DNA of 64,000 bases from positions 250,495 through 314,494 of the forward strand of contig JBGAUV010000001.1 in the NCBI GenBank assembly GCA_044228445.1. The letters run 5' to 3'. Of this stretch, positions 21,522 to 50,411 are shown piece by piece. Below the pieces are notes generated by a model, which saw nothing but the letters and a program-made list of their open reading frames with translations, was not told the DNA's origin and searched no databases. The position numbers and the translations under genes were made by a program. The stretch is from Minisyncoccia bacterium. Its GTDB lineage: Bacteria; Patescibacteriota; Minisyncoccia; Phycocordibacterales; PALSA-1337. Numbering within the stretch: the first letter of the stretch is position 1; the number at the start of each line of letters is the position of its first letter.

Positions 21522-22727
21522 ATGGAAAAGGGGTTAAATACAGAGAAAAAGAGCAAAATACTGGTCTTTTCAGTAGCTTATTATCCTTATCTAATAGGAG
21601 GTGCCGAACTAGCGCTAAAAGAGATAACAGACAGAATCGGTGGAGATATGGATATTGATATGATTACTCTATATGCCGGAGAATCAAGATTGGAAAGAAT
21701 AGGGAATATAAATGTATATAGAGTTGGTCCAAAGATAAAATTAGTAAATGGAAAAATAACTCACATTCCTCTTTATGTGAAGTTATTGTATATGTTTTTT
21801 GCTTTCATAAAATCTTTATCACTCGAAAGACAAAAGAATTATGATTTTATTTGGTCTATGATGGCAAGTTTTTCTGGTTATGTTGCTTTATTTTTCAAAT
21901 TAATTAAACCAAAAAAGAAATTTTTATTAACACTACAGGAAGGTGACTCTCTTGAACATATAGAAAAAGCTATGGGTATTACATATCCAATTGCTAAACC
22001 TTTATATAGAAAAATATTTGAAAAAGCAGATATGATTCAAGCGATTTCAAAATTTCTCGGAGAATTTTCAAGAGATATGGGTTCAAAATGTCCAATTGAA
22101 ATAATTCCAAATGCAGTAGACTATAAACTTTTCTCAATGTCTCAACAGCAAGGTCAAATGAATGCACTTAGATCAGAACTAGGTTTAACAGAGAATGATA
22201 ATGTAATAATTACCACATCAAGATTGGTAATGAAAAATGCTATTGGAGATATTATAGATGCACTTACATATTTACCTTACAATACAAAGCTACTTATACT
22301 TGGTATTGGTTCTCAAGAAAAACTCTTAAAAGAAAAAGTTCAATTATTAAAACTTGATAATAGAGTACAGTTTATTGGTTATGTTCCATATAAAGAAATA
22401 CCACTATATTTAAGTATTTCAAATATATTTATTAGACCAAGTATATCAGAAGGTTTCGGTAATTCTTTTATTGAAGCAATGGCATCTGGAATACCAGTAA
22501 TAGCAACACCTGTAGGAGGAATAGTTGATTTTCTTTTTGATAATGAAACAGGTTTCTTTTGTAAGGTAAAAGATCCAAAAAGCATAGCTGATAAAATAGA
22601 CTATATAACTAACAATGTTGAAATAAGAGAAAAAGTAATAAAGAATGCAAAGAAAATGGTTAGTGAAAAATATGATTGGGATAAAATTGCTCAAGATATG
22701 AAGGTTAAAGTAATAGAAAAAATGTAA
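21522..22727 (+). CDS. Glycosyltransferase family 4
   Basis: GFGNSFIEAMASGIPVIATPVGG C-terminal GT-B motif. Confidence 0.8.
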   Translation: MEKGLNTEKKSKILVFSVAYYPYLIGGAELALKEITDRIGGDMDIDMITLYAGESRLERIGNINVYRVGPKIKLVNGKITHIPLYVKLLYMFFAFIKSLSLERQKNYDFIWSMMASFSGYVALFFKLIKPKKKFLLTLQEGDSLEHIEKAMGITYPIAKPLYRKIFEKADMIQAISKFLGEFSRDMGSKCPIEIIPNAVDYKLFSMSQQQGQMNALRSELGLTENDNVIITTSRLVMKNAIGDIIDALTYLPYNTKLLILGIGSQEKLLKEKVQLLKLDNRVQFIGYVPYKEIPLYLSISNIFIRPSISEGFGNSFIEAMASGIPVIATPVGGIVDFLFDNETGFFCKVKDPKSIADKIDYITNNVEIREKVIKNAKKMVSEKYDWDKIAQDMKVKVIEKM

Positions 22728-23762
22728 ATGAAAATATTAATATCTACAGGTATATATCCACCAAAGACTTCCGGTCCAGCACAATATGCAAAAAACATGC
22801 ATGATATTTGGACTAGTTCTGGGTATGATGTAAAGGTAAAAACATACGATATAGAAAATAAACTACCAAGTGGTATAAGACATTTATATTATTTCTTTAA
22901 AATATTACCTAGTGTTATAAAATCAGACTTTGTATTTACACTTGATACTTTCAGTGTAGGTTTACCAACCGCAATGGCTTGTGCTTTATTCAATAAAAAA
23001 TTTATCATTCGTACAGGCGGAGATTTCCTATGGGAAGGATATGTTGAAAGGACAGGTGATCTTGTTTTATTAAAAGATTTCTATAAAACAAGAATAGATA
23101 ATTTAAATTTAAAAGAAAAAATAATATTTAATCTTACAAAATGGGTTTTAAATAAAACTGATATTCTAATATTCAGTACAGAATGGCAAAAAGATATATT
23201 TATGGAGCCATATGAACTTCAAAAGAAAGACAATGATGGAAAAATTAAAATTGTAGAAAATAGATATGGAGAAAAGGAAATAAATGATACACAGAGTTTT
23301 GATACAATAAAGAATTTTGATTTTATTGCTAGCACTAGAGTTTTGAAATGGAAGAATATAGATTTCTTAAAAAAAATATTTGATAGTGAAGAATTGAAAT
23401 CAAAAGGTGTAAGACTTATAACTCAAGAAATGAAATATGATGATTTTATGAATGCTATGAAAAAGTCATACGCAACTATACTTATATCTTTAGGTGATAT
23501 AAGTCCTCATATGATACTTGATTCTATTAGATTAAATAAACCTTTTATAATTACACAAGAAAACGGTCTCTTAAATAGAATAGAAAGAATTGCTTTAAAA
23601 GTTGATCCAAAGGATGAAAATGATATAAAAAATAAAATAAATTATTTATTAGATAAGACAAACTATGATCGCCAAGTTTCACTTATAAAATCTTTTGATT
23701 TCAAGAGAACTTGGGAAGAAATATCAAAAGAGATTTTAGAAATAGTAAAAAATATTAAATAA
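22728..23762 (+). CDS. Glycosyltransferase-like protein (GT-B fold)
   Basis: N-terminus resembles the GT4 N-domain; no clear EX7E motif. Confidence 0.45.
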   Translation: MKILISTGIYPPKTSGPAQYAKNMHDIWTSSGYDVKVKTYDIENKLPSGIRHLYYFFKILPSVIKSDFVFTLDTFSVGLPTAMACALFNKKFIIRTGGDFLWEGYVERTGDLVLLKDFYKTRIDNLNLKEKIIFNLTKWVLNKTDILIFSTEWQKDIFMEPYELQKKDNDGKIKIVENRYGEKEINDTQSFDTIKNFDFIASTRVLKWKNIDFLKKIFDSEELKSKGVRLITQEMKYDDFMNAMKKSYATILISLGDISPHMILDSIRLNKPFIITQENGLLNRIERIALKVDPKDENDIKNKINYLLDKTNYDRQVSLIKSFDFKRTWEEISKEILEIVKNIK

Positions 23763-23763
23763 T

Positions 23764-24744
23764 ATGAAGCTATTATCAATTTCAACAGATAGAAAAATAT
23801 TTGATAAAAATAGTGCAGTAGCATTAAGACAAATTGAATATGCAAAAAGTTATGAAGAAATGCATATTATTGTTTTTAGTGATAAAAGCTATAGTGAAAT
23901 ATCACTAGCACCAAATATTTGGGTTTATCCAAGTCATTCTAGCAATAGATGGATGTATATATTCGATGCTTTAAAACTCGGTAGATTTATCGTTGAAAAA
24001 AGAAATATTGATAATATAACTTGTCAGGATCCATTTGAAACAGGTTTGGTTGGAGCACTTATAAAAAGTCGACATAATGTAAAACTTGAAATTCAAATTC
24101 ATACTGATTTAGGAAATAAATATTTTAGAAATTTTAATACTTTAAATAAAATTAGATCAATTATTTCAAACTTTGTTTTACCTAGAGCAGATCATGTTAG
24201 GGTAGTATCAAATAGAATAAAGGATTACGTTAAGAGATATATTGATGAAACGAAGATAGAAATAAGACCTATTAAAGTCGATATAGATAAAATAGAAAAT
24301 ACTCCAATCAGTGTTGATTTACATAAAAAATATCCACAATTTGAGAAAATTGTTCTAATGGCTAGTAGAATAGAAAAAGAAAAAAATATAGATATGGCTA
24401 TTAGATCTTTTTCTGTATTATCAAAAATGCGACAAAATGTCGGTCTTATAATAGTTGGAAGTGGTAAAGAGAAAGAATACTTAAAAAATTTAGCAAAAGA
24501 ACTTTGTATAGAAAAACTTGTAATATTTGAAGATTGGAATGATGATATTGTATCTTACTATAAAACTTGTGATATATTTCTACTAACTTCATGGTATGAA
24601 GGGTATGGTATGTCACTAGTTGAAGCTCAAGCTTGCGGGGCAAAAGTAGTTTCAACTGATGTGGGTATTGCAAAAGAATTGGCAATAAAGACTGTTAAAT
24701 ATAATGAAGATTCTATAGCTTGGGGAATAATGGAATATCTTTAG
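23764..24744 (+). CDS. Glycosyltransferase family 4
   Basis: EGYGMSLVEAQACGAKVVSTDVG. Confidence 0.75.
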   Translation: MKLLSISTDRKIFDKNSAVALRQIEYAKSYEEMHIIVFSDKSYSEISLAPNIWVYPSHSSNRWMYIFDALKLGRFIVEKRNIDNITCQDPFETGLVGALIKSRHNVKLEIQIHTDLGNKYFRNFNTLNKIRSIISNFVLPRADHVRVVSNRIKDYVKRYIDETKIEIRPIKVDIDKIENTPISVDLHKKYPQFEKIVLMASRIEKEKNIDMAIRSFSVLSKMRQNVGLIIVGSGKEKEYLKNLAKELCIEKLVIFEDWNDDIVSYYKTCDIFLLTSWYEGYGMSLVEAQACGAKVVSTDVGIAKELAIKTVKYNEDSIAWGIMEYL

Positions 24745-24763
24745 TTTTTTAGTATAAATTTTA

Positions 24764-26251
24764 ATGAAAAAAATACTGAATAATACAATAATTAAATATT
24801 TAATTTCAGGCAGTACATCTGCTTTTATTGACTTATTTATTTTACATTTACTTGATACATATACAGGATTTCATTATCTTATAAGTGTAAATATTGCTTT
24901 TCTTTGTGCATTTTTTATGAGTTTCTTTTTGCAAAAGTATTGGACTTTTAGTGATAAGACTCAAGGAAGAACAAAAGTGCAAATGATAATGTATTTTACA
25001 ATTTCTGTAATAAATGTTTTTGTAAATAGTTTTTTAATTCATGCAATATTAAATAATTTTTCAGTTCCAAGTATATTTTTATTAAGACCAGTTGTAATCG
25101 CTCAGATAATTGCAGCTTTCTTTGTTGCTACAGAGTCTTTCTTTATATATAGATATTTAATTTTCAAGAAAAAGCATGTATTTGAAAATAGTAAAAGAGA
25201 TAAAGATATATTAATAATTACTCAAAAAATAGATAAGAATGATAGTTATTTTGGTTTCTTCCATGATTGGGTAGTTGAATTTGCAAAGAATTGCAATAAG
25301 GTAAATATAATTTCTTTAGAAACATATAGTTACGATTTTCCTTCAAATGTTAGTGTATTTTCACTTGGTAAAGAAAATTATAAAAGTAAGTTTAATTATT
25401 TAAAAAATCTATATAAATATATTTATAAATATAGGGACAATTATGATGTAGTTCTATGTCATATGAGTCCACTTTATGTTATTGCTGGATATCCAGTTTG
25501 GAAATTATTAAATAAAAGAATTGTACTCTGGTATGTTCATAGATCGGTTGATTTAAAATTGAAAATTGCAAATATTTTAGTAGATAAAGTATTAACTGCT
25601 ACAAAAGAAAGTTATAGAATAAATAGTGAAAAAGTACATTATTTAGGTCAAGCAGTTAATATTGAACATTTCTCAAATAAAATAGGGGAGAGAAAGCCTG
25701 ATGGATATTTCAATATAATTACAGTTGGTAGAATAACTCCAATAAAAAGACTAGATATTTTAGTTGAAGCTATATCAATTCTTGATAAACAAAATGTACC
25801 TGTAAAGTTATTTATTGCAGGAGCTCCAACTGTACAAACTGATCTTGAATATGAAACAAAAATTCAGAAGAAAATAAAAGAATTAAATCTAGATGAAAAA
25901 ATAATATTCTTAGGTCCAGTACCATATATAGATATACCAAAGCATTATTGGAATAGTGATGTATGTGTAAACCTAGCACCAACTGGAGGCCTTGATAAAA
26001 CAGGTTTAGAGGCAATGATGGCAGGTATACCATTAATTACCTCAAATACAGCTTTTGAGGCCCATTTTGGGCAGTTTTCAAAGGATTTGATAGTAAATGA
26101 CCATGATCCACAAGATACAGCTTTTAAACTATTTAATCTATATAATTCAAAGAAATATACATTTATTGGTTTCACTTTGAGAAAAGAAGTTATAAAAAGA
26201 TCTAGTCTCGACAATTTAATAGCTAATATTGTAAAAGAACTTTATATATGA
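24764..26251 (+). CDS. GtrA-like membrane domain fused to a GT4 glycosyltransferase
   Basis: N-terminal 130 aa with 4 TM helices and GtrA-like pattern; C-terminal EAMMAGIPLITSN. Confidence 0.6.
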   Translation: MKKILNNTIIKYLISGSTSAFIDLFILHLLDTYTGFHYLISVNIAFLCAFFMSFFLQKYWTFSDKTQGRTKVQMIMYFTISVINVFVNSFLIHAILNNFSVPSIFLLRPVVIAQIIAAFFVATESFFIYRYLIFKKKHVFENSKRDKDILIITQKIDKNDSYFGFFHDWVVEFAKNCNKVNIISLETYSYDFPSNVSVFSLGKENYKSKFNYLKNLYKYIYKYRDNYDVVLCHMSPLYVIAGYPVWKLLNKRIVLWYVHRSVDLKLKIANILVDKVLTATKESYRINSEKVHYLGQAVNIEHFSNKIGERKPDGYFNIITVGRITPIKRLDILVEAISILDKQNVPVKLFIAGAPTVQTDLEYETKIQKKIKELNLDEKIIFLGPVPYIDIPKHYWNSDVCVNLAPTGGLDKTGLEAMMAGIPLITSNTAFEAHFGQFSKDLIVNDHDPQDTAFKLFNLYNSKKYTFIGFTLRKEVIKRSSLDNLIANIVKELYI

Positions 26252-27312
26252 AAAAGATATGTTTTTTTGGAATATTTGATGAAAATTATTCTAGAAATAG
26301 AGTCTTAATTAAAGGCTTTAAAGAAAATAATTTTGAAGTACATTTTTGTAAAATTGATCCAAATGTTCATAAGGGTTTAAAAAAGTTTTATGAACTATAT
26401 TTACAATATAAAAAGATAAATGAAAATAAATTCGATCATGTTTTAGTTGCTTTTCCGGGACATAGTGTTGTTTGGTTAGCTAGAATATTATTTGGAAAAA
26501 ATATAATATTTGATGCTTTTGTTTCTCTTTATAATTCAAACTATCAAGACAGAAGAAAGTATTTTAAACACTCATTATTTGCTTTCAAAGATAAAATATT
26601 GGATTGGTTTTCAATAAGACTATGTAAATACGTACTTCTAGATACAAATGCTCACATTGATTATTTTGTCGAAAATTATGGTTTAAAAAGAGAAAAAGCA
26701 AAAAGAGTTTTTGTGGGTACTGATGATAGTGTTATGTACCCTAGAAAAATAGAGAATAAAACAAAAGATTTTATCGTCCATTTCCATGGAAGCTTCATAC
26801 CACTTCAAGGAATTGAATATATAATTCACGCTTTTAATTTAATAATTAATAAATATGAAGTTAAAGATATAAAGTTGAGACTTATAGGTAAGGGTCAAGA
26901 AAGTGAAAAAATAAAAAGACTTATAAATAGTTTAAATTTATTCGATAATATTGAACAAATAGATAAGGTTAGTTATGAAACTCTGCCTGAATACATTTGT
27001 AATTCCGGTGTTGCACTAGGTATATTTGGTAAAAATATAAAATCAGATATGGTTATACCAAATAAAGTTTATGAAGCAATAGGTTGTGGTAAGATCTTGA
27101 TAACTTCAAATACAAAAGCTATTAGAGAATTATTAATTGATAAAGTTAATGCTGTATTAGTAGAACAAGGCAATGCAGTAGAATTAGCTCAAGCAATAAT
27201 AGATATAAAACGAAATAATTTAGACATTATAAATATACAAAAAAATGTAGAAATTTTGAGAAAAGAAATATATCCAAAAAATATTGTAAATAATTTAATT
27301 AAAACAATATGA
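26248..27312 (+). CDS. Glycosyltransferase (GT-B, GT4-like)
   Basis: YEAIGCGKILITSN C-terminal motif. Confidence 0.55.
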   Translation: MKKICFFGIFDENYSRNRVLIKGFKENNFEVHFCKIDPNVHKGLKKFYELYLQYKKINENKFDHVLVAFPGHSVVWLARILFGKNIIFDAFVSLYNSNYQDRRKYFKHSLFAFKDKILDWFSIRLCKYVLLDTNAHIDYFVENYGLKREKAKRVFVGTDDSVMYPRKIENKTKDFIVHFHGSFIPLQGIEYIIHAFNLIINKYEVKDIKLRLIGKGQESEKIKRLINSLNLFDNIEQIDKVSYETLPEYICNSGVALGIFGKNIKSDMVIPNKVYEAIGCGKILITSNTKAIRELLIDKVNAVLVEQGNAVELAQAIIDIKRNNLDIINIQKNVEILRKEIYPKNIVNNLIKTI

Positions 27313-28289
27313 TAAAAATATCTTGCATAATTCCACAGATAAAAGACGATTATCTCGTAAATACAGTAATAGATGGACTATCAATTTTAGAACAAGAAAA
27401 TAAAATTGAATGGCTAGTTTCATCATTATCTTATAAGAATACATATATAAAGGAAAAAAATAGACCAAGTTCAATACAAGATTTTATTAATAAAGCTAAA
27501 CAAGCAGATATAATATTATTATTTTGGAGTAAGTCTGGAGTTGATTTAGATTTAATTAAACAAATTAATTGTTTTAATAAGACTATATTTATCGATGGTT
27601 CTGAACTGGGTAGAAATAAAAGATTGGATAAAGATATCGTTCAAAAATTAAATAATCTAACTTGGGAAGGGCAGGGTAAAATAGATCAAGATTTATTAAA
27701 TAAATGCGCTGGATATTTTAGAAGAGAAAAACCATATATAAATGGTATAAAGCCTTTTCCTTTTGGTATTGAAAGAAAATATATAGGTTGGAATAAAAAT
27801 ATAGTAAAGGATATAGACTTTGTATGTATATTTGGACAAGAGCAATATCCACCGCTTAGAAAAAAAGTTAGAAAAATATTGGAAAGTTTTTGTAAGAAAA
27901 ATGAATTAGTTTATGTAACAGAAAAAACTAAAACAAGAGATGAATTTTATAATATTTTAGCTAGAGCAAAAGTTGGAATATCTGTAAGTGGGGGAGGATA
28001 TGATACTGCTAGATTTTGGGAAATACTAGGTAATAATTGTATTTTATTAACTGAAAAGATCGATATATATAATGATGAAGATAAGAGATTGCAATATAAC
28101 AATATATATGAATTCAATAATGAAAATGATTTTGAAGATTTATTAATAAAAATCACTCAGTATTTACGAACTGATTATAATATAAATGATTTGAAAAAAG
28201 ATTATCAAAATATAATAAATAATCATTCAAGTAAAGCCAGAGTAAATGAAATAATTGATTATTGTAAAGATAAGGGTATTATTAAATGA
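27309..28289 (+). CDS. Hypothetical protein in glycan cluster
   Basis: Uninterrupted ORF with start/stop overlaps to its neighbours; weak Rossmann-like GT features. Confidence 0.4.
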   Translation: MIKISCIIPQIKDDYLVNTVIDGLSILEQENKIEWLVSSLSYKNTYIKEKNRPSSIQDFINKAKQADIILLFWSKSGVDLDLIKQINCFNKTIFIDGSELGRNKRLDKDIVQKLNNLTWEGQGKIDQDLLNKCAGYFRREKPYINGIKPFPFGIERKYIGWNKNIVKDIDFVCIFGQEQYPPLRKKVRKILESFCKKNELVYVTEKTKTRDEFYNILARAKVGISVSGGGYDTARFWEILGNNCILLTEKIDIYNDEDKRLQYNNIYEFNNENDFEDLLIKITQYLRTDYNINDLKKDYQNIINNHSSKARVNEIIDYCKDKGIIK

Positions 28290-29197
28290 TGGAAAATAAG
28301 TGTACAATATGCGGAAATATATCTAGTTTTCTTTTAAATAAAGACGGTTTTGATCTATATAAATGTAAAAAATGTAGTTTAGTCTTTGTACACCCACAAC
28401 CAAAACAAGATTTTCTAAAAAATGAAGTCTATTCTTTTGAATCAGGTTATCAATCAAATAAAGCCAAAGATCTTTCAAAAGTACCAATTACAAAATCATA
28501 TAAAAAAATATTTGATTATTTAAATAAAAATAATATTAAAGGAAGTATGTTGGATATTGGTTGTTCAAATGGAGAATTTTTATATCATGCAAAAAAATAT
28601 GGTTTTCAAGTTGCAGGAATAGAATTAAATAAACGTACAGCAGAAATAGCAATTCAAAATGGTATTGATATTTTTATAGGTACAATTGAAACAGTAAATT
28701 TAAATCAAAAATATGATTGTATATTTTTAGGAGATATTATTGAACACGTAACTGATCCACAATCTTTTCTAAATAAATGCGTAAGTTTATTAAATAATAA
28801 TAGCCATATAATAATATCTACACCAAATCTCGATTGCTTTTGGTCAAAATCAAGTTTTTTACTATATAAATTATTTAAAATACCTTGGTCTTCACTTACT
28901 CCACCTTATCATTTATTCCAATTTAGTCATGAAAATTTAATTAGTCTTGCTCAAAATAATGGATTAAATTATGTAGATTCTTGGTATACAGGTAGACCAA
29001 GACTTATGTATGAACTCGGTTCATTACATTTGGTCAAAAAGATTAAAAATTCAAAAGGGATTATGAAAGTTTTCTATTTTATTTATACAGTAAAATCTTT
29101 TTTACTTTATTCAATTCTATATTTTATTGCAGATATATTGAGTCTATTTAGGATAACTAAAAGGGATTTTGCTATGGTTATAGTATTTAAGAAATAA
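28286..29197 (+). CDS. Class I SAM-dependent methyltransferase with N-terminal zinc ribbon
   Basis: CTICGN...CKKCS; motif I MLDIGCSNGEF. Confidence 0.75.
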   Translation: MMENKCTICGNISSFLLNKDGFDLYKCKKCSLVFVHPQPKQDFLKNEVYSFESGYQSNKAKDLSKVPITKSYKKIFDYLNKNNIKGSMLDIGCSNGEFLYHAKKYGFQVAGIELNKRTAEIAIQNGIDIFIGTIETVNLNQKYDCIFLGDIIEHVTDPQSFLNKCVSLLNNNSHIIISTPNLDCFWSKSSFLLYKLFKIPWSSLTPPYHLFQFSHENLISLAQNNGLNYVDSWYTGRPRLMYELGSLHLVKKIKNSKGIMKVFYFIYTVKSFLLYSILYFIADILSLFRITKRDFAMVIVFKK

Positions 29198-29198: not shown

Positions 29199-30248
29199 AT
29201 GGAAAAGATTAAAGTATATATTGGAAAACCATTTGATAAATTACCAATAATAGAAGTTTTATCTGCGCCACCAAGGTTGGTAAAAGATAAAAATATATTT
29301 GAAGAGAAAGATCTATTTTCTTCAAGTGAAGGCTATGTTGAAATTGTAAATAATCCCGAAGAGTGTGAATATTTCCTATTACCACATTCATATAACTTTA
29401 TCTCAAATAATAAAAATTACATTAGGGACTTTGAAGATTTAGCAAATAAATATAATAAAAAGATTATAGTTTTTCTTTTAGGTGATTCAAATGAAAAAAT
29501 TTATTTTAAGTCTTCTATTATATTTAGAATGTCTCAATACAAGACAAGTTTAAATAAAAATGAGTTTATAATGCCTGCTTATGCTCAAGACTTGGGTGGT
29601 TTATATGGGGTAAATTATAAAGATAAGAGTGAAATACCCACAGTTGGCTTTTGTGGTTGGGCAGATGTACCAAGCCCTTATATGAATTTCAAATATAATT
29701 TAAAGTATTTATTTTGGAATATTTCAGGAAAATTTATAAATAAACTCGGCGCTAGAGTTCCAGGAGTTATTTTAAGAGAAAAATTAATTAAAATAATTAA
29801 TTCAAATAAAGATATTAATAAAAATATAATAATTAGAAGATCTTATGGTGGAAGTATAAAAACTATAGGTATACCACCAGTTCAAGCTAGAAAAGAATAT
29901 GTTGAATGTATAAAAAACTCAGATTATTTTCTTTGTCCTAAAGGTGATGGTAATTTTTCAGTTAGATTTTATGAAACTCTTAGTCTAGGTAGAATTCCAG
30001 TGCTTATAGATACTGATATAGAGCTACCTTATCCTGATCTTATTGATTACAATTCTTTTTTAATCAAAATAAATATGAAAGATATTAACAATATTGATAG
30101 TATCATTTTAAATTTTCATGAGGGAATAAATAAAGAACAATTTAAGTCAATACAGAATAAATGCAGACAAGCGTTTGACCAATACCTTAATATTCATGTA
30201 TTCTTTAGGAATGTTCTCAAAAGAGAGTTTTTGGCTAAGATTCACTAA
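29199..30248 (+). CDS. Exostosin-like (GT47-like) glycosyltransferase
   Basis: FLCPKGDGNFSVRFYETLSLGRIPVLID resembles the exostosin C-terminal motif. Confidence 0.5.
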   Translation: MEKIKVYIGKPFDKLPIIEVLSAPPRLVKDKNIFEEKDLFSSSEGYVEIVNNPEECEYFLLPHSYNFISNNKNYIRDFEDLANKYNKKIIVFLLGDSNEKIYFKSSIIFRMSQYKTSLNKNEFIMPAYAQDLGGLYGVNYKDKSEIPTVGFCGWADVPSPYMNFKYNLKYLFWNISGKFINKLGARVPGVILREKLIKIINSNKDINKNIIIRRSYGGSIKTIGIPPVQARKEYVECIKNSDYFLCPKGDGNFSVRFYETLSLGRIPVLIDTDIELPYPDLIDYNSFLIKINMKDINNIDSIILNFHEGINKEQFKSIQNKCRQAFDQYLNIHVFFRNVLKREFLAKIH

Positions 30249-41984: not shown

Positions 41985-44283
41985 TTATATGAATAAATTT
42001 GCTAAAATTACTTTATTTTTATTACCTATAACTCTATTATTTTTAATTTTCTTTAAGATAATTTTTGAAAAGGGTTTCTTTATGAATGGTGATAGTGTAT
42101 TTGGATATTTCACTTATTTTTATTATTTTGTTCATGATGGTCCTTTAGTTAGTCAAAATCTTCTATTGGGTTTTCCAGTTTTTTCTTCAAATACAGGTAC
42201 TTGGTTTTATCCTATAAATACTTTATTTTTTAATCTTTTTGGTGATGTTTCTGGTTATGTAAACTTAGTCATTATTAATATTATATTAACCTATATATTT
42301 TCTTTTTTATTTTTTAAAAAACATACAAAGAGCTTTATTGCTTCAGTATTGTTTGGTTTAGTCTTTTTATTCAATGGACAAAATATGCTTTGGATAGAGA
42401 CACTGGGTAATACAAATTATTATTTTGTTTTACCTTTAATACTCTATCTTTATGAATTTATAAAAAATGATAATAAGTATAAATGGATATTTAGAATACT
42501 TATAGGTATTTTCTTAGGAACTATATGGTTATCAGGACATGTGCAATATGTACTATATATACATACGATATATGCAATTTATGCTCTATTTATAAATGGT
42601 TTTAATTATAAAAAATATAAGCAATACGTAGGTGATATAGTTTTACCAAATATAATTTCTTTTATATTAGGTTATAGTCAAATAATTTCTATACTTAATT
42701 TTAAACCAAATTCAATAAGAGAAAGTGGGGTAATGATAAGTGATGTATTTTCTGGAGCTTATGGTTTTAATGATTTAATACACTTTGTATTACCTTTTTT
42801 TAGAACACCAATACTTTCTTGGAGTAGTCCAAGTTTATATATAGGAATACTCCCATTTTTACTGCTTATAACCTCTATAATTGCAATTAAGAATAATTGG
42901 CAGGATAAACTATATAGGTTCTCTTTTTTCACCTTTCTATTCTGTTTCATAGCATCATTTAAATATTCACCTATAGCATATTTATTACACTATTTACCTT
43001 TATTTAATTCACTTAGAGAAGGACCAAGAATAATGTTTATTGGTTTTATGTTCGGTGCAATTCTTATAGTTAAGACTATTATTAATGTTGAAAATAAAGA
43101 CTTTGAATTAAACATTTTAAATAAAGTAAATAATATATTTGGAAAGATTTTTCTTTTAATAGTATTACCACTAGTATCTATTTTTTCAATAGGCTATGGT
43201 TTTTTCTTCAATAAAATTTCAGATCTTATAAATAATTATTTTATTAATAATATTTATAATTCATCATATAAACTATCAAAAGAACATTATATAAATGTAT
43301 TAAATCAATATATAAAAGAATTGAATATATTTACCATATTCAATTATCAAATTGTGGTTTTTATTGTATTCTCTTTATTAACTTATATCTTTATTAAGAA
43401 TATAAATAAAATCAGAAACAGAATATTACCTATATCAATAGTTTTTATCTCATTAAATATATTATTTGTTTATATGTTTAATTTTAAGTCTATTCCAAGA
43501 GAGGAAATGTTAAAATTACCAAGTACAGCACAGTTTATTAAAGATAATGGTGGCAATATGCCATATAGAGTTTATTCAGTATTTCCTGGATTAAGTTTAT
43601 ACAATAAATACTCTGTAAACTGTAAGAATCATAATGATAGCGATGCTTTCTATATACAAAAAGAAATGATGGCACCAAATATAAACATGATATATGGAAT
43701 AGATATTATTGATGGTTATGATAACTTTATCCCAAAGATCTTATCAGATAAGCTTGCATATATAGGATCCGAAAATTCATTTTCAAAGAATAATATAATA
43801 AATAAAGATACATCTATACAAGAAAAAATAATTGAAATTCAAAATAATAAGGATTTATTAAAATTGATGAATGTTAAATATATTATTTCAATGTATAAAT
43901 TTAATGATATTGATTTTAAATTAGTTAAAACAAATGAATTGCCTTGTAATAATGAACTATATATTTATGAATTAAAATCATATTTACCAAGATATTTTTA
44001 TACCGATTCAATTGATAATATTAAAAAAGGTATAAATATAAATGAAATTAATCCCGATTATAAAAAAGAAGAGACCGTATTCAATTTTACTAGTGAAAAA
44101 GATGGATATGTATTTATCGGTAATACATATTTACCTAGTTATGAAATTTATATAAATAGTAAAAAAGAAAAACCAAGTATATATGAAAATTTATTTATGA
44201 TAATACCAATTAAAAAAGGTGAAAATAAAATCATAATAAAATATCCAATAAATCACAGTATTTTGGATATATTTAAAAAATAA
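41914..44283 (+). CDS. Large polytopic membrane protein (YfhO/GT-C-like putative glycosyltransferase)
   Basis: 789 aa; many N-terminal TM helices; soluble C-terminal domain. Confidence 0.4.
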   Translation: MQVLILLFQFLQKHHKCLLFFQNSYMNKFAKITLFLLPITLLFLIFFKIIFEKGFFMNGDSVFGYFTYFYYFVHDGPLVSQNLLLGFPVFSSNTGTWFYPINTLFFNLFGDVSGYVNLVIINIILTYIFSFLFFKKHTKSFIASVLFGLVFLFNGQNMLWIETLGNTNYYFVLPLILYLYEFIKNDNKYKWIFRILIGIFLGTIWLSGHVQYVLYIHTIYAIYALFINGFNYKKYKQYVGDIVLPNIISFILGYSQIISILNFKPNSIRESGVMISDVFSGAYGFNDLIHFVLPFFRTPILSWSSPSLYIGILPFLLLITSIIAIKNNWQDKLYRFSFFTFLFCFIASFKYSPIAYLLHYLPLFNSLREGPRIMFIGFMFGAILIVKTIINVENKDFELNILNKVNNIFGKIFLLIVLPLVSIFSIGYGFFFNKISDLINNYFINNIYNSSYKLSKEHYINVLNQYIKELNIFTIFNYQIVVFIVFSLLTYIFIKNINKIRNRILPISIVFISLNILFVYMFNFKSIPREEMLKLPSTAQFIKDNGGNMPYRVYSVFPGLSLYNKYSVNCKNHNDSDAFYIQKEMMAPNINMIYGIDIIDGYDNFIPKILSDKLAYIGSENSFSKNNIINKDTSIQEKIIEIQNNKDLLKLMNVKYIISMYKFNDIDFKLVKTNELPCNNELYIYELKSYLPRYFYTDSIDNIKKGININEINPDYKKEETVFNFTSEKDGYVFIGNTYLPSYEIYINSKKEKPSIYENLFMIIPIKKGENKIIIKYPINHSILDIFKK

Positions 44284-44306: not shown

Positions 44307-44954
44307 ATGACATATATATTTCAACCAGATAGATACCTACTTGTAGAGCAAATAAAGAAGAATTCACACTATATTAAAGGTAAGGTTTTGGATGTTGGTG
44401 CAGGACATTATTCTAGATATGAAAAGTTTTTTAAGGCTGAAAAATATATAAAAATGGATATTAACCATTCAGAGCATGTAGATATTGTAGGTAGTGTTGA
44501 TAATATCCCAATGGAAGATAATTCAGTCGATTCTATAGTTTGTACTCAAGTTTTTGAACATATTAGATATATCGATAAAAGTGCAAGTGAACTTTATAGA
44601 GTATTAAAAAAGGGAGGTCATGTAATATTAACTGTACCTCAATTGAATGAATTACATGAAGAGCCTCATGATTATTTTCGATATACAAAGTATGGTTTAA
44701 AAAGCGTTTTTGAAAACGTTGGTTTCAATATAGTAGAAATGGATCAAAGAGGAAGTTTCTTTTCTTCTACTGCTCAAATGATAATAAGGTTTTTATCAGA
44801 TTATTTTGATTTATATAATAGAAAAATCTTAGGTAAAATACTTGGTAAATTTATATATTTATTTGGTATGTTAAGTATCAAACTTGATAGTTTAGTAAAA
44901 CACAGTGCAAATAAAAAGCATGCAATAGGTTGGTGTTGTGTATTAAAGAAATAA
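44307..44954 (+). CDS. Class I SAM-dependent methyltransferase
   Basis: VLDVGAGHYSRY; EPHDYFRYT. Confidence 0.7.
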   Translation: MTYIFQPDRYLLVEQIKKNSHYIKGKVLDVGAGHYSRYEKFFKAEKYIKMDINHSEHVDIVGSVDNIPMEDNSVDSIVCTQVFEHIRYIDKSASELYRVLKKGGHVILTVPQLNELHEEPHDYFRYTKYGLKSVFENVGFNIVEMDQRGSFFSSTAQMIIRFLSDYFDLYNRKILGKILGKFIYLFGMLSIKLDSLVKHSANKKHAIGWCCVLKK

Positions 44955-44955: not shown

Positions 44956-46125
44956 ATGAAAATATTAATACTATCTGATGATTTCCCCCCAAAAAGCTTC
45001 GGTGGAGCAGGAATTATAGCAAGTGTACAAGCACAAGAACTTCAAAAAAGAGGTCATGAAGTTAGGATTTTTACCATAACTGATGATGAAGATAAGATCG
45101 ATCCACGATTCAGATCATATTTAAGTTTATATAATATAAAAACTATAAAAAAGATTAGAAAAATCCTGAATGAATTTAAACCTGATATTGTTCATGCGCA
45201 CAATATTCATGAACATATATCATATGCTTCACTTTATTATGCAAAAAAGAGCGGAGCAAAAATCTTTATTACCTTGCATGATGCTATGAGTGTTTATTAC
45301 GGTAAAGTACCACAAAATTATATAAATACTGATAAACCTATTAGTTTAATAGATTGTTTTAAAACTTTTGGAATAAGAGTAAATCCTTTTAGAAATTTAA
45401 TAATTAGAAAATTATTTAATTATGCAGATAAAATATTTGTAGTTAGTGAGGCTCTAGGAAGATTTCTATCAAATAATGGAATAAAAAATACCATAGTAAT
45501 GCATAATGGTATAAATACAAATAATTGGAGAGTGCCAGATATTATTAAAAATGAATATAAAAAATCCTTAGGTATAAATAATGATACAAAGATAGTTATG
45601 ATTGCAGGTAGACTTAATAATATGAAAGGAGCTAAGGTTAGCTTAAAGGCTTTTGCTGAAGTGTTAAAGAAGTATAGGAATGTAGTTCTACTTATAGTTG
45701 GTAATAAACCTGAACAAAATAATGAGTTTAATTCAATAATTAATCAATTAAATATAGTCGATAAAGTAATATTTACTGGTTGGGTGAGATATGAAAATAT
45801 GCCAACAGTATATTCTATATCTGATATCGTCATTGTGCCTTCGTTATACTTGGATCCATTTCCAACGATTAACCTTGAAGCAATGGCTAGTAAAAAGCCT
45901 GTAATTGGTACAAAGTTTGGTGGTACTCCAGAAATAATTAAAAATGGTAATAATGGTTATATTATTGATCCAAATAATATTGAGCAATTTAAAAATAAAA
46001 TACTAGATTTATTAAATGATGAACAATTAACAATAAACATGGGTAAAAGAGGGTATGATATTGTTAATGATGAATTTAATTTAGATAAAAAGATTGACTA
46101 TCTTATATCATGTTATAATCATTAA
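44956..46125 (+). CDS. Glycosyltransferase family 4
   Basis: EAMASKKPVIGTKFGGTPEII. Confidence 0.8.
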   Translation: MKILILSDDFPPKSFGGAGIIASVQAQELQKRGHEVRIFTITDDEDKIDPRFRSYLSLYNIKTIKKIRKILNEFKPDIVHAHNIHEHISYASLYYAKKSGAKIFITLHDAMSVYYGKVPQNYINTDKPISLIDCFKTFGIRVNPFRNLIIRKLFNYADKIFVVSEALGRFLSNNGIKNTIVMHNGINTNNWRVPDIIKNEYKKSLGINNDTKIVMIAGRLNNMKGAKVSLKAFAEVLKKYRNVVLLIVGNKPEQNNEFNSIINQLNIVDKVIFTGWVRYENMPTVYSISDIVIVPSLYLDPFPTINLEAMASKKPVIGTKFGGTPEIIKNGNNGYIIDPNNIEQFKNKILDLLNDEQLTINMGKRGYDIVNDEFNLDKKIDYLISCYNH

Positions 46126-46131
46126 AATAAA

Positions 46132-46887
46132 ATGACAAACGATATAAAACATAAAAATACCATTGTTGATTATTATAATAAAGAGAGTACTCAATATTCA
46201 AAAAAGAGATATGAGGGTAGTCTAAATACATATACCCAATATCTTTTTAGAAAAAGAATGAATATATATTTTAACTATATATTTTATGTTAAAAATGCAT
46301 TAAAACACCCAATTGACTTATTTGATATAGGTTGTGCTGATGGTGTAGTTTTATTTAATACTGAAGATAAATTTAGTGATTTTATAAAGTCATTTGATGC
46401 AGTCGATGTTTCAAGTTCTATGGTTGATATTGCAAATAAAAATAAAATAAATAATAAATTTAATTTTTATTTACGTGGTCAAGAACCAGATAAAAAATAT
46501 GACTTGGTTACTGAACTAGGTGTACATATATCTGATCCAGATTCAGAATATAAATACGTTAAAAATAAATTAAATAATAGTAATTCTTTTTATATATTTT
46601 CAGTTTCAAGTAAAAATTCTCTACATACAATATTTAAATTAAAGAATGATCCAAAAGCAAAACACTATACAGATTTAAAAACATTTAAACAGACTGAAGT
46701 TATATTAAATAGACATTTTAAAATTATAAAGAAGACACCATACGGTTTATTTATACCAAAACTATGGTCAATATCTATTTTGGGTTCATTATTTCAACCT
46801 ATAATTGATACTGTATTTAGTTTTATTACACCTAGTTTATTTCACGAGACTATATACCTTGTTTCTCCTTTGGATAAAAAAGAATAG
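46132..46887 (+). CDS. Methyltransferase-like protein
   Basis: LFDIGCADGVVL motif I-like. Confidence 0.5.
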   Translation: MTNDIKHKNTIVDYYNKESTQYSKKRYEGSLNTYTQYLFRKRMNIYFNYIFYVKNALKHPIDLFDIGCADGVVLFNTEDKFSDFIKSFDAVDVSSSMVDIANKNKINNKFNFYLRGQEPDKKYDLVTELGVHISDPDSEYKYVKNKLNNSNSFYIFSVSSKNSLHTIFKLKNDPKAKHYTDLKTFKQTEVILNRHFKIIKKTPYGLFIPKLWSISILGSLFQPIIDTVFSFITPSLFHETIYLVSPLDKKE

Positions 46888-48108
46888 ATTGACTAAAAGC
46901 ATAAAGGTCCAAGATATTCCATTTTCAATAACAGCACCGAGTATTCCTAGTTTTGGGATCAAAATTAAACCAAATATTATAGTAGCAACATTACCAATAA
47001 TATTTAGCATATAAAGTGTCTTTGTATCTTTTATTATTTGGAAATAAGTAGCAAATAAAGATATTCCAGGGAAAGTTATAAGGCCTAGCATGTATATTTG
47101 TGAATAGAATATTGATTCCATATATTTTGGGAAAAATATCTTATAAATATATGGAGAAACAAAGTAATAAGCAATAACTATTAGAAATGATATTGCAGTA
47201 AGTCTAATTATTTTATCTGTTATACTTTTTCTTAATTTTATTTCTTCAAGTTCAGCAAACTTGGGAAAACCAATATTAAATATATTTTTAAAAAACGATC
47301 TAGCCTGCTCAGGTATAGCATTTGCAAAAGAATATACAGCAAGTGGAGCAGAACCTATAAAATGAAATAATAATATTTTATCTACTTGATTTGCTATAGT
47401 ACCTATAAAACCCATAATACTTAAATGATGTCCGTATTTTATCATTGAGCTATCATTTGTATTTGGATCAGGTTTATATAGTCTTATTACTCTAATATAG
47501 AAAATTATTGATAATATAAATGTACTACCGAAATAAGCTCCAATTAAAAGAATTATATTTGGATTGTATATCGCAACAATACTTATTGTTATTACATTGA
47601 TTAATTGAGTAATTATCCAATATATTGTACTTCTTTTAAAATCTTTCATTCCAGAAAGAAAAGCTCCATATAAACTAAAACTATTTGTAATAGGTAAGGT
47701 TAAACTAACTATTATAAAAGCAATTGCAAAATTTATATGATCATTTAAAAAATAGTATAGGGAAGCACCTAGTGATACTATACTCAATAAACTTCCCCAT
47801 ATTAATTGAGTTTTAAAAGATTCGTATACCGTTCCATTATTTCCTTTTGCTACTGCTTGAGTTAGACTCGAACCGAGTCCAGATAAAGATAATCCACCAA
47901 TTATTCCTGCTAAAGATAGTATAAATTTATAATCACCATAAAGTTCTTGTGATATTGTTCTTGCCAATACAATAGACAAAAATAGAGATGATAAAACTGC
48001 AATACCTTGACCAATAGTCATCCAGAAACTTCCTTTGGCAATGTATACCATATCAGTTTTTAGGTATTTTTCGCTAAAACGCAAAAACCTATAAATGACC
48101 TGTTTCAT
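46837..48108 (-). CDS. Oligosaccharide flippase (Wzx-like, MOP superfamily)
   Basis: 423 aa with about 12 TM helices; polysaccharide-biosynthesis-protein pattern; lies convergent to the cluster. Confidence 0.6.
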   Translation of the reverse strand: MKQVIYRFLRFSEKYLKTDMVYIAKGSFWMTIGQGIAVLSSLFLSIVLARTISQELYGDYKFILSLAGIIGGLSLSGLGSSLTQAVAKGNNGTVYESFKTQLIWGSLLSIVSLGASLYYFLNDHINFAIAFIIVSLTLPITNSFSLYGAFLSGMKDFKRSTIYWIITQLINVITISIVAIYNPNIILLIGAYFGSTFILSIIFYIRVIRLYKPDPNTNDSSMIKYGHHLSIMGFIGTIANQVDKILLFHFIGSAPLAVYSFANAIPEQARSFFKNIFNIGFPKFAELEEIKLRKSITDKIIRLTAISFLIVIAYYFVSPYIYKIFFPKYMESIFYSQIYMLGLITFPGISLFATYFQIIKDTKTLYMLNIIGNVATIIFGLILIPKLGILGAVIENGISWTFMLLVNLFFFIQRRNKVYSLVK

Positions 48109-48173
48109 ATAGACAAATCTACCATAATATTTGGTTTTTTACACTACATAATATTTTTACTTTATGCTATAGT

Positions 48174-50411
48174 TTGGCCACTATGAATTCAAAAACATTA
48201 GAGAGTATTTATAAATATATTACATTAACGGGTTTATTTGCTGTATTATTTCTGCCACTTTATATAGAAAATAGCTTTTTCTTTCCATTTATAACAGGTA
48301 AGGGTTTCGCTTTCAGAATAATTGTTGAAATAATATTTGCTTCATGGATATTATTATTTCTAAGAAACAATACTTATTTACCAAAATGGTCTAGTATACA
48401 AGTCTGTTTTACAATATTTACTGTTGTATTACTTATTGCAGATATATTAGGTGTAAGCTTTCTAAGAAGTTTTTGGTCAAACTTTGAACGTATGGATGGT
48501 TGGTTGACCTTAGTACATCTTTGGGGTTACTTTATGGTTTTGAGTTCAATGTTCTCTGTTAGAGAAGGAGATAGAAGAATGTGGAATAATTATTTTAATG
48601 TAAGTCTTTTTGTTGCTGGTATAGTAGGTATATATGGTTTTTCTCAATTATTTGGCTTTGCAAAAATTCACCAAGGTTCAGCTCGTATAGATGCTTCACT
48701 AGGAAATGCTATATATCTAGCTGTCTATATGATGTTCAATTCTCTTTTAGCTATTTATATGGCTTTTGATTCAGCAGAGAAGAAAAATAATGATACATCT
48801 CTATATGCTGTATCTCTATATAGTATATTAGCTATAGTATTTGCTTTCTTAATGTTTGAAACATCAACTAGAGGAGTTGTTCTAGGATATATTTTGGGAA
48901 TAATAGTTGGTCTTATTATGCTTGCAATATCAGGTAAGAATAAACAAACTAAGTTAATTTCAGTTGCATTAATTGCATCTATACTTATTGTTGGAGGAAT
49001 ATTCTGGTCAATTAAAGATACAAAGTTTGTGCAAAACAATCCAAATCTAAAACGTTTTGCTGAAATATCATTAAGCGATACAAAGACTCAAGCTAGAGGA
49101 TATATATGGCCAATGGCTGTAAAAGGTGTATTTAGTACGCCAAAAACATCAATAATCGGTTGGGGTCAAGAAAACTTTAACTATATATTCAATGCAAACT
49201 ATAACCCTGAAATGTGGAGACATGAACAATGGTTCGATAGAGCACACAATACTTATTTAGATTGGTTAGTTGCAGGTGGGGTAATAGGATTACTAGCATA
49301 TTTATCAATATTTATATTCACTCTAGTATCAATAGCTAAGAGTAATTTAAATATAAATGAAAAAGCTGTAATTGTAGCAATACTTATTGGTTATAGTGTC
49401 CAAAGTATATTTACTTTCGATAACCTTATAAGCTATATGTATTTATACATAGTTCTAGGTTTCATATCTGGTATTAGATCAAGTAAGGAACATGTTTGGA
49501 TAAAAAAGATAACTCTTCATAATTCAAAAAATTATCATATATATAGAGATTATTTCTATACTCCTGTAATTGCCATTGCTTTCATAGTTGTAATGTTCAG
49601 TGTAAATATTCGTCCAATACAAGCTAATACAAGTCTTATAGATGCTATGATTACATGTTCAGGAGGAAATCAACTACCTTCAGTTTCTGCTTTCCAGAAA
49701 GTTGTGGACTATGATAAATATATGGCAAGTCAAGAGGCTAGAGAACAGACTTTATCTTGTGCAACAAACGTCATAAATAGTGGTTTACCTCAAAATTTAA
49801 AGGTAGATTTTGCAAACCTTGCTGGAAGTCAAATTGATGCACAAATGAATGTAACACCAAATGATGCGAGAATATATTACCTAGGCGGAGTATTCATGAA
49901 CAATGCTGGTAGCTATAGTGCAGGAAAATTATTATTGGAAAAAGCAAATACACTATCTCCAAATAAACAATCTATAATACTTGAACTAGCTACAAATTAT
50001 GTAAACACAGGTGATGTAAAGGGCGCACTTGAAATAATAAAGAAAGCATATGAAGGTACACCAGATAATGATAATGTTAGATCTGCATATATGTCTTTAT
50101 TGATTTTAAATGGTGAAGAGTCAAAACTTAAAACTATATTTAAGGATAAATATGAAAATACATACTATGATGAAAAAATAGTTGGTGTATATATGAATAA
50201 AAAGCAATACAATAAAGCTATAGAAATATATAATTATCTAATAGGTAAGTATCCAAGTATGAGTAAATACTATCTTGGCATAGCTGGAGTTTATTATTCA
50301 AGTGGTGATAAATATAGTGCTATAAATGAATTAAAAATAGTTGGTGATAAATTCCCTGAGCTAAAAAAGCAAACAGAGGACGCTATAAAAGAAGTACAAA
50401 AAGTAAAATAG
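48174..50411 (+). CDS. O-antigen ligase/polymerase-like (Wzy_C) membrane domain fused to C-terminal TPR repeats
   Basis: About 11 TM helices with a large periplasmic loop; C-terminal 250 aa of TPR-like repeats. Confidence 0.6.
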   Translation: MATMNSKTLESIYKYITLTGLFAVLFLPLYIENSFFFPFITGKGFAFRIIVEIIFASWILLFLRNNTYLPKWSSIQVCFTIFTVVLLIADILGVSFLRSFWSNFERMDGWLTLVHLWGYFMVLSSMFSVREGDRRMWNNYFNVSLFVAGIVGIYGFSQLFGFAKIHQGSARIDASLGNAIYLAVYMMFNSLLAIYMAFDSAEKKNNDTSLYAVSLYSILAIVFAFLMFETSTRGVVLGYILGIIVGLIMLAISGKNKQTKLISVALIASILIVGGIFWSIKDTKFVQNNPNLKRFAEISLSDTKTQARGYIWPMAVKGVFSTPKTSIIGWGQENFNYIFNANYNPEMWRHEQWFDRAHNTYLDWLVAGGVIGLLAYLSIFIFTLVSIAKSNLNINEKAVIVAILIGYSVQSIFTFDNLISYMYLYIVLGFISGIRSSKEHVWIKKITLHNSKNYHIYRDYFYTPVIAIAFIVVMFSVNIRPIQANTSLIDAMITCSGGNQLPSVSAFQKVVDYDKYMASQEAREQTLSCATNVINSGLPQNLKVDFANLAGSQIDAQMNVTPNDARIYYLGGVFMNNAGSYSAGKLLLEKANTLSPNKQSIILELATNYVNTGDVKGALEIIKKAYEGTPDNDNVRSAYMSLLILNGEESKLKTIFKDKYENTYYDEKIVGVYMNKKQYNKAIEIYNYLIGKYPSMSKYYLGIAGVYYSSGDKYSAINELKIVGDKFPELKKQTEDAIKEVQKVK

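Follow-up and report, generated by a model that had tools for sequence, protein, structure and literature searches.

A conserved methyltransferase-rich glycan locus with a probable glycan ligase in a Patescibacteria genome

Patescibacteria, or bacteria of the candidate phyla radiation (CPR), live attached to other microbes, and the chemistry of their surfaces is almost unknown. Here we describe a predicted surface-glycan locus at positions 21522-50411 of a 64,000-nucleotide stretch of DNA (the window) from a Minisyncoccia bacterium (GenBank assembly GCA_044228445.1, contig JBGAUV010000001.1, positions 250,495 to 314,494). Its genes form a single conserved unit that resembles an operon, and the last of them, g24, probably encodes, judging from its sequence and its context in other genomes, a ligase of the WaaL/PglL/WsfB type that acts on a conserved acceptor, not a polymerase. 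All the parts belong to familiar types; the novelty lies in how they are combined and in an architecture, seen across the phylum, that sets a conserved ligase next to a variable, methyl-rich island. Literature searches turned up no paper on this ligase family or on its fixed place in Patescibacteria, and nothing relevant on an O-antigen ligase or O-oligosaccharyltransferase of the phylum. The locus gives a concrete path by which a methylated surface glycan could be made.

Organization of the locus

The open reading frame (ORF) map places 24 tightly packed genes between 21522 and 50411, in a part of the AT-rich window where GC content ranges from 0.22 to 0.32. The spacing between genes from g1 to g22 lies between -53 and +31 bp, with frequent 4-nt overlaps. 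The original prediction, made from the sequence alone, described 23 consecutive plus-strand genes on a single strand; 23 of the 24 genes do lie on the plus strand, but the uninterrupted run is one of 22 genes (g1-g22, 21522-46887). It is followed by the Wzx-type flippase gene g23 on the minus strand, which converges on g22 and overlaps it by 51 bp, and then by g24, again on the plus strand, with start candidates at 48174 and 48183 and its end at 50411. The 581-bp gap between g24 and murB (50412-50992), which gave no Rfam match, contains three G+C-rich hairpins with T-runs, two of them palindromic (both strands). Terminator-like sites number six in the scanned region against 1.4 expected, and four of them fall in this gap. 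Among the Pfam-scanned genes inside 21522-50411, neither an initiating transferase nor a gene of a nucleotide-sugar pathway was found.

Domains were called by Pfam scans of the window ORFs against the family cutoffs, with NCBIfam, PDB and hhalign as supplements. Glycosyltransferases (GTs) are given by family, and SAM stands for S-adenosylmethionine. The features are as follows.

21522..22727, plus strand: g1, GT4 (Glycos_transf_1 5e-40)
22728..23762, plus strand: g2, divergent GT-B enzyme, GT4-like (Pfam 18 bits, under cutoff)
23764..24744, plus strand: g3, GT4 (Glycos_transf_1 3e-30)
24764..26251, plus strand: g4, fusion of a GtrA-family membrane domain (residues 11-134) with a GT4
26248..27312, plus strand: g5, GT4 (Glycos_transf_1 7e-20)
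27309..28289, plus strand: g6, doubtful GT, borderline Glyco_trans_1_2 (CgeB-like; 25.5 bits against a cutoff of 25)
28286..29197, plus strand: g7, zinc ribbon (CTIC and CKKC at residues 6 and 27) and class I SAM methyltransferase (Methyltransf_23 3e-18), with a C-terminal hydrophobic segment
29199..30248, plus strand: g8, exostosin (GT47)-like GT-B enzyme (Exostosin_GT47, PF03016, 58.9 bits against a cutoff of 33.4)
30196..31743, plus strand: g9, GT-C enzyme of PMT_2/ArnT type (GT39/GT83-like) by the domains of its homologs; the ORF opens with TTG at 30175, the database protein at 30196
31744..32886, plus strand: g10, GT4 (Glycos_transf_1 2e-26)
32888..33832, plus strand: g11, GT2 polyprenyl-phosphate sugar synthase (ArnC/GtrB/PgfS-like), two C-terminal transmembrane helices predicted
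33834..35717, plus strand: g12, AsnB-type glutamine amidotransferase (Asn_synthase 3e-90)
35749..36519, plus strand: g13, SAM methyltransferase (Methyltransf_25/11 2e-17)
36524..38146, plus strand: g14, fusion of a GT2 resembling dolichyl-phosphate mannose synthase (DPMS), a zinc ribbon and a SAM methyltransferase; the ORF opens with TTG at 36491
38143..38874, plus strand: g15, SAM methyltransferase (Methyltransf_11 5e-26)
38871..40037, plus strand: g16, GT9 (heptosyltransferase-like) GT-B enzyme (Glyco_transf_9 4.6e-18; RfaQ-like 1.9e-19)
40034..41065, plus strand: g17, membrane di-iron desaturase/hydroxylase (FA_desaturase 1.5e-20; histidine boxes HEAVH, HWQHH and HMLHH)
41058..41984, plus strand: g18, zinc ribbon (CPIC and CKNC) and SAM methyltransferase (Methyltransf_23 5.5e-23)
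41992..44283, plus strand: g19, YfhO-like GT-C enzyme; the ORF opens with TTG at 41914
44307..44954, plus strand: g20, SAM methyltransferase (Methyltransf_11 2e-12)
44956..46125, plus strand: g21, GT4 (Glycos_transf_1 1.3e-45)
46132..46887, plus strand: g22, weak methyltransferase-like protein (Methyltransf_12 22 bits, under cutoff)
46837..48108, minus strand: g23, Wzx-type flippase (Polysacc_synt, PF01943, 3e-21)
48183..50411, plus strand: g24, putative WaaL/PglL-type glycan ligase (Wzy_C, extracytoplasmic C-terminal TPR domain)
50501-50516, 50688-50714 and 50803-50819: cluster of terminator-like hairpins that closes the unit before murB

Glycosyltransferases and polyprenyl-phosphate-sugar modules

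The Glycos_transf_1 domain scores far over its Pfam cutoff in six genes (starting at 21522, 23764, 24764, 26248, 31744 and 44956). To these comes the divergent, GT4-like g2, for which an orthologue profile aligned to a GT4 paralogue profile at an hhalign probability of 95.9% over 307 columns. The borderline g6 was also considered as a solid GT4, and this was rejected with an hhalign probability against GT4 of 1%. Residues 11-134 of g4 match PF04138 at 61.3 bits (cutoff 26.1; GtrA_DPMS_TM 1.2e-16) in the same protein as a GT4 domain (Glycos_transf_1 1e-19), so that the predicted GtrA-GT4 fusion is present. The one GT9 and the one exostosin-like enzyme that had been predicted are g16 at 38871, which reaches 65.9 bits against PF01075 (cutoff 22) with all NCBIfam equivalogs far under their cutoffs, and g8 at 29199, in which the Pfam match spans the C-terminal half only and for which EXT1 was the best match in a PDB search (5e-4), with EXTL3 at 0.04. 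The NCBIfam search returned nothing for g2, g6, g8, g9 and g19.

The locus also holds two predicted polyprenyl-phosphate-sugar synthases, one GtrA domain and two predicted GT-C transferases. The synthases are the two GT2 enzymes of the original prediction, one of them fused to a methyltransferase. g11 matches ArnC (1.8e-54) and PgfS (1.6e-43) of NCBIfam from end to end, and g14 carries Glycos_transf_2 and Methyltransf_23 domains, with residues 25-256 closest in the PDB to an archaeal protein, the dolichyl-phosphate mannose (Dol-P-Man) synthase of P. furiosus (5mlz, 1.6e-31). AglJ is among the NCBIfam matches of both proteins. The fusion in g14 may, speculatively, provide a GT-C enzyme with a polyprenyl-phosphate sugar that is already methylated.

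The two GT-C assignments stand on the domains of relatives and, for g19, on a predicted fold; PDB sequence searches with g9 and with g19 gave nothing useful. g9, which has about 10 predicted transmembrane segments, has no Pfam match of its own, and most of its 102 homologs carry PF13231/PF02366 (PMT_2/PMT). Several of these homologs are fused to GtrA or to a GT2, Rosetta-stone fusions that point to a functional link among GtrA, GT2 and GT-C proteins. g19 scores 18.4 bits against PF09586 (YfhO; cutoff 28.5) at its C-terminus only. We therefore class it, from its modelled fold, as a YfhO-like GT-C enzyme and not as YfhO proper, because its score lies under the cutoff though several of its orthologues carry precomputed PF09586. 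The AlphaFold2 model of g19 (pLDDT 82, pTM 0.83) matched GT-C enzymes only in Foldseek (AftA, STT3, ArnT, PglB and Pmt4), and its first loop contains an invariant Asp. All the parts of a Gtr-type module are present, namely the GtrB/ArnC-like GT2 (g11), the GtrA domain (g4) and GT-C enzymes (g9, g19).

Methyltransferases and other modifying enzymes

Six SAM methyltransferase domains score over the Pfam cutoffs (g7, g13, the C-terminus of g14, g15, g18 and g20) and one, g22, is weak, as are the methyltransferase matches of its orthologues, which are weak or faint. The seven domains of the original prediction are accordingly six solid and one weak, and its three zinc ribbons, of the CxxC...CxxC type, lie ahead of the methyltransferase domain in g7, g14 and g18. 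These three proteins are paralogues at 28-33% identity. Recent local duplication was considered as the source of the methyltransferases and GT4s and was rejected, the identity between paralogues being only 21-36%.

The AsnB protein and the membrane desaturase/hydroxylase that had been listed for this region were found again as g12 and g17 by Pfam and, for the latter, by its histidine boxes. g12 scores over the cutoff of TIGR01536, and its top NCBIfam match is the amidotransferase TIGR03108, associated with exopolysaccharide (EPS). g17, for which a PDB sequence search gave nothing useful, ranks with the most strongly conserved genes here (97, 90 and 66% identity to orthologues; 12 members in its 90%-identity cluster) and is gone from the distant locus versions L008 and L012. 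It belongs to an O2-dependent type of enzyme, unexpected in a lineage that is commonly considered fermentative.

Taken as a whole, the domain content agrees with a surface-glycan locus with unusually many SAM methyltransferases, as had been proposed, and the domain searches did not reassign the proteins to unrelated functions. The locus appears to diversify its glycan by methylation instead of by nucleotide-sugar modification genes, which would be cheap for a small genome.

Conservation of the locus in relatives

The gene order of the locus was recovered from independent assemblies (loci numbered with the prefix L). Identity to the window genes is about 93-99% in L009, 68-91% in L002 and L006, and 47-75% in L003, L007, L010 and L011, and the entire block keeps its order down to about 50% identity. 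L008 and L012 have a rearranged version at 33-66% identity. The flanks are common to the relatives as well, with a TrwB-like ATPase gene upstream and murB and secA downstream, and the minus-strand orientation of the Wzx gene is the same in L006, L007 and L008. A chimeric assembly, which would have undone the original prediction, is rejected because the locus is syntenic in independent assemblies, at identities from about 93% to about 37%. Variability between strains, the other matter raised there, was not seen within the clade, where the locus is syntenic.

Differences between versions concern single genes. L002 has one additional methyltransferase; g13 is missing from the L003/L007 lineage, in which the g14 fusion is split into two separate genes; and L007 has two g20-like methyltransferase genes, not one. 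A count of 6-8 methyltransferases is retained in all the versions compared. The genes of the locus diverge faster than SecA, which is 94% and 90% identical at the two levels compared.

g24 and its relatives

g24 matches PF04932 (Wzy_C) at 61.9 bits (cutoff 31.7) over residues 219-377, and residues 576-721 match TPR_19 and other TPR families in Pfam. These are the domains that the original prediction had read, next to a Wzx flippase (PF01943), as a Wzy-like protein fused to TPR repeats. Thirteen transmembrane helices are predicted, with the TPR domain outside. The protein has a WaaL-type polytopic fold, WaaL being its best fold match. Wzy_C with an outer C-terminal TPR domain, the arrangement in g24, marks the PglL/WsfB type.

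The family is large. More than 3,800 full-length proteins are homologous to g24 at 43-50% identity, which far exceeds the 13 homologs of g19 and the 102 of g9, and 1,946 representatives, mostly of 710-800 amino acids, match at E<=1e-30 among 1.84 billion cluster representatives. An alignment of 31 sequences contains many invariant residues, such as the motif GQENFNY...EQWFDRxH, all of them in predicted outward loops. The outward loop 277-356 contains four of the invariant residues, R291, R305, R353 and H355.

A metagenome scan for relatives of g24 found at least 475, and 80 loci were kept. Neighbours were counted in the 52 non-duplicate loci with enough downstream sequence and in the 49 with enough upstream sequence. 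As in the window, murB and/or secA lie directly downstream of the g24 orthologue in 43 of the 52 loci (both genes in 35). Upstream, the genes differ completely between lineages, and two distant genomes have the order of different glycan genes, then ligase, murB and secA. The nearest upstream exporter in the 49 loci was Wzx in 22, a Wzt-type ABC ATPase in nine and a fused ABC protein in eight, with none recognised in the remaining 10. The three Wzt-type loci that were checked by Pfam all had a true Wzm (ABC2_membrane) and Wzt (ABC_tran and Wzt_C).

It is this pattern that leads us to read g24 as a ligase: about 45% identity is kept while the genes for the substrate are replaced, and orthologues adjoin ABC exporters. 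In ABC-transporter-dependent pathways the polymer is finished in the cytoplasm, and a ligase is required, not Wzy.

Methyltransferases are prominent in the islands next to the ligase. In 15 diverse loci, 143 ORFs upstream of the ligase were scanned, and Methyltransf_23 (16) and the FkbM-type Methyltransf_21 (13) were the commonest Pfam families, ahead of GT2 (8), ABC_tran (8), GDP-Man dehydratase/epimerase (6), GT11 (5), Wzx (5), NeuB (4) and GT4 (4). When we classified the genes ourselves, the 10 kb ahead of the ligase contained one or more methyltransferases in 32 of 42 loci (median 1, maximum 4), and the window has four in that distance and seven overall. The locus had been called unusual for a reduced genome. 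In this respect it does not stand out, because methyltransferases are the commonest family in the ligase-adjacent islands and such islands precede the ligase in most of the Patescibacteria loci sampled. The window locus is typical in kind for the phylum and at the upper end in size.

A wider proposal, which we put forward tentatively, is that g24 represents a general, promiscuous ligase of Patescibacteria, placed beside murB and secA, which would move lineage-specific methyl-rich glycans, exported by Wzx, Wzm/Wzt or PglK-like ABC proteins, onto pilins or S-layer proteins. If this is true, the islands would be what chiefly sets the surfaces of CPR episymbionts apart, with consequences for host recognition and phage evasion. 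The conserved ligase by murB and secA is a handle for locating the variable glycan island in any Patescibacteria genome and, if it is a promiscuous O-oligosaccharyltransferase, a possible glycoengineering tool.

Several of the sampled loci have features of their own. L014 has a GT2-DUF5672-Methyltransf_21 fusion near the ligase (1-1586), and other ligase-adjacent islands also carry carbamoyltransferase, GT11, GT17 and NeuB genes. The glycan island is not always directly upstream of the ligase, because L087 and L092 have there a run of many small ORFs, which is not a glycan island. Four loci without murB or secA downstream (L017, L039, L040 and L059) have an opposite-strand ORF of about 222 amino acids directly after the ligase, in L017 an OmpR-type response regulator by Pfam, and this suggests a second, paralogous ligase context. 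In L055 a histidine kinase gene lies between the ligase and murB.

Proposed pathway and alternative explanations

Domain identities, folds, synteny and the phylum-wide context of the ligase were observed directly here. From these we propose, at about even chances, that the locus serves to build a defined oligosaccharide with heavy O-methylation on a polyprenyl carrier, and that this oligosaccharide is moved en bloc to a conserved extracytoplasmic acceptor. Initiation would fall to an enzyme encoded outside the locus, for which a Bac_transf phosphoglycosyl transferase 20 kb upstream is a candidate. Up to 10 GT-B enzymes (six GT4, one divergent GT4-like, the GT9, the GT47-like and one doubtful) would then elongate the glycan in the cytoplasm, where six or seven SAM methyltransferases, several with hydrophobic tails, would modify it at several positions and the AsnB-type g12 may amidate a carboxylate. 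Wzx (g23) would flip the lipid-linked glycan across the membrane, and g24, with its putative catalytic loops and its TPR domain facing outward, would transfer it as a ligase. Outside the membrane, g9 and g19 could add side decorations, with g11 and g14 supplying the polyprenyl-phosphate sugar donors, for which the GtrA-family domain of g4 is a likely flippase. The pairing of Wzx with a polyprenyl-phosphate-sugar route had been noted in the original prediction, and two synthases and two GT-C enzymes do stand beside Wzx.

The acceptor is most likely a surface protein, a pilin or an S-layer protein, by analogy with O-oligosaccharyltransferases that combine Wzy_C and TPR domains. CPR cells reportedly bear S-layers and pili. 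O-glycosylation of pilins has been predicted in Saccharibacteria, where it was called 'unexplored' (PMC11623550).

Several points weigh against this pathway. In profile searches of the PDB the membrane-domain profile of g24 gave no useful match and the full profile matched only TPR proteins, and a residue-level alignment to the catalytic residues of WaaL or PglL was not obtained. The window contains no acceptor gene for a pilin or S-layer protein, and a pilin motif search found none. The initiating transferase lies outside the locus, and the ten cytoplasmic GTs could equally well build a polymer by processive steps.

The alternative that survives best, though we consider it rather doubtful, keeps the same pathway and gives it a non-protein acceptor, either peptidoglycan/lipid II, forming a secondary cell-wall polymer without an LCP enzyme, or a membrane glycolipid, forming a lipoglycan like lipoteichoic acid or lipomannan. 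The fold of g24 is compatible with this, the acceptor of WaaL being a lipid, and so are the lipid desaturase/hydroxylase g17 and the lack of an LCP gene among the scanned window ORFs. A further point in its favour is that the decoration of teichoic acids in Firmicutes involves GT-C enzymes of the YfhO type. The g24 gene is moreover fixed beside murB across the phylum; against this, terminator-like hairpins part the two genes, and we regard the adjacency as positional and not operonic because of them. The locus contains no genes for the synthesis of a lipid anchor, and an external TPR domain is common to the protein-directed enzymes WsfB and PglL (PMC2943079).

The reading in the original prediction was that of a classical Wzx/Wzy heteropolysaccharide (a capsule, EPS or O-antigen-like glycan) with g24 as the repeat-unit polymerase. 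Some polymerases share the Wzy_C family, Wzx is directly beside g24, and the locus has many GTs. Wzy polymerases, however, are poorly conserved between glycan loci and occur only in Wzx loci, usually with a Wzz or other polysaccharide co-polymerase (PCP), and g24 departs from them in each respect: its sequence is strongly conserved throughout the phylum even where the glycan genes are entirely different, its orthologues adjoin Wzm/Wzt systems, and no Wzz/PCP gene was seen among the scanned window ORFs. As its best fold match is WaaL, and as a repeat unit of 10 sugars would be unusually large, we favour the ligase and consider the polymerase improbable. Very unlikely is a 29-kb mosaic of two or more independent, co-located pathways (for example Pmt-like O-mannosylation, YfhO-type decoration and a Wzx/ligase glycan), for which the two synthase/GT-C pairs, the autonomy of Gtr-type modules elsewhere and the rearrangement or loss of genes such as the desaturase in L008 and L012 can be cited, and against which stand the tight packing with frequent 4-nt overlaps and the conservation of the entire block, in the same order, to about 50% identity.

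Comparison with known systems

The closest parallels to the proposed pathway are the slg clusters for S-layer glycosylation of Geobacillus stearothermophilus and Paenibacillus alvei. Their O-oligosaccharyltransferases WsaB and WsfB contain Wzy_C, and WsfB, like PglL, has a C-terminal TPR domain; the clusters also encode WsfA, a homolog of AsnB, and WsaE, in which a methyltransferase is fused to a glycosyltransferase, and a methyl cap is read by Wzt (PMC2943079). The window locus resembles them in its monoderm-type envelope, its Wzy_C protein, its AsnB homolog, its methyltransferase-GT fusion and, as far as our proposal goes, its lipid-linked assembly and subsequent en bloc transfer, and the slg layout of Wzm/Wzt with a ligase is also found in distant relatives of the window. 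The window locus differs in having Wzx and not Wzm/Wzt, in having seven methyltransferase domains against one, and in lacking rml or other nucleoside diphosphate-sugar genes and an adjacent S-layer gene. It adds two GT-C branches, the GT9, the GT47-like enzyme and the desaturase.

The general protein O-glycosylation cluster of Tannerella forsythia, which is polycistronic, has 26 ORFs in 27 kb, with Wzx, five GTs, three methyltransferases and AsnB, and its product is a methylated decasaccharide (PMC6120980). It is like the window locus in size and in having Wzx, several GTs, methyltransferases and AsnB. Only the cluster of T. forsythia, a diderm, has genes for nonulosonic acid and ManNAcA synthesis, and it lacks, unlike the window locus, a ligase or oligosaccharyltransferase gene and GT-C/Gtr modules.

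WaaL of C. metallidurans (PDB 7tpj) has no sequence similarity to g24 detectable by profile search, and g24 has in addition a thirteenth transmembrane helix and a TPR domain of about 240 residues. We saw no genes for the synthesis of lipopolysaccharide (LPS)/lipid A or ADP-heptose in the 64-kb window; Patescibacteria are generally regarded as lacking LPS. The Gtr-type systems (GtrA/GtrB/GtrX, CsbB-GtcA-YfhO, PgfS/PgfM and ArnC/ArnT) have counterparts in g11, the GtrA domain and the YfhO- and PMT_2-type GT-C enzymes. Unlike in those systems, GtrA is fused to a GT4, the DPMS-like g14 has a zinc-ribbon methyltransferase in place of membrane helices, and both modules form part of a larger operon with Wzx and the ligase.

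In the Agl pathway of Haloferax volcanii, cytoplasmic GTs work on a polyprenyl carrier together with the SAM methyltransferase AglP and a flippase resembling Wzx, and a GT-C enzyme completes the chain on the outside with a sugar taken from Dol-P-Man. The window locus is similar in its carrier-bound cytoplasmic GTs, its methyltransferases, its Wzx-like flippase and its external GT-C step, each as proposed above, whereas the Agl pathway uses the oligosaccharyltransferase AglB/STT3 and not a Wzy_C ligase, and has far fewer methyltransferases.

Surroundings of the locus

Outside the locus, the features that bear on it are the following.

48-1052, plus strand: Bac_transf phosphoglycosyl transferase (PF02397 6.7e-51)
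1069-2130, plus strand: NAD-dependent epimerase/dehydratase (PF01370)
19658..21517, plus strand: TrwB/VirD4-like P-loop ATPase (Pfam TrwB_AAD_bind, DUF87 and TraG-D_C)

The Bac_transf/epimerase pair is the candidate for the initiation step, a link that we infer; it lies 20 kb from the locus, with an rRNA gene and housekeeping genes in between. The TrwB-like ATPase gene ends 4 bp before g1 and occupies the same position in L002 and L003. Its product has a long low-complexity C-terminal tail rich in N, Q, K and P. It may be co-transcribed with the glycan operon, and its membership is uncertain. In the 638-bp gap upstream of it, at 19565-19591, there is a 12-bp stem with 10 G-C pairs, in a genome of about 30% GC. 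Downstream of g24 the window continues with murB and secA.

The window also carries RNase P, peptidoglycan genes, a MraY-like gene in a mur cluster and a complete 16S rRNA gene (3723-5255). No 23S gene was found beside the 16S gene within the window, where the 16S gene is followed by an ORF (5800) and then by a tRNA (6592). Two primers specific for TM7 (Saccharibacteria) fail to match this 16S gene within 3 mismatches, and a label of Saccharibacteria was therefore not adopted; named homologs of the locus proteins are assigned to Parcubacteria or Paceibacterota. Between the Mur ligase and MraY-like genes, a 219-amino-acid ORF (13843-14502, minus strand) has a weak match to ATE_C, the C-terminal domain of arginyl-tRNA-protein transferase, and may encode a tRNA-dependent peptidoglycan-modifying enzyme. 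Upstream of the unit, at 17841-19019, lies a gene for a DUF4015 protein, a putative glycoside hydrolase with an N-terminal hydrophobic segment.

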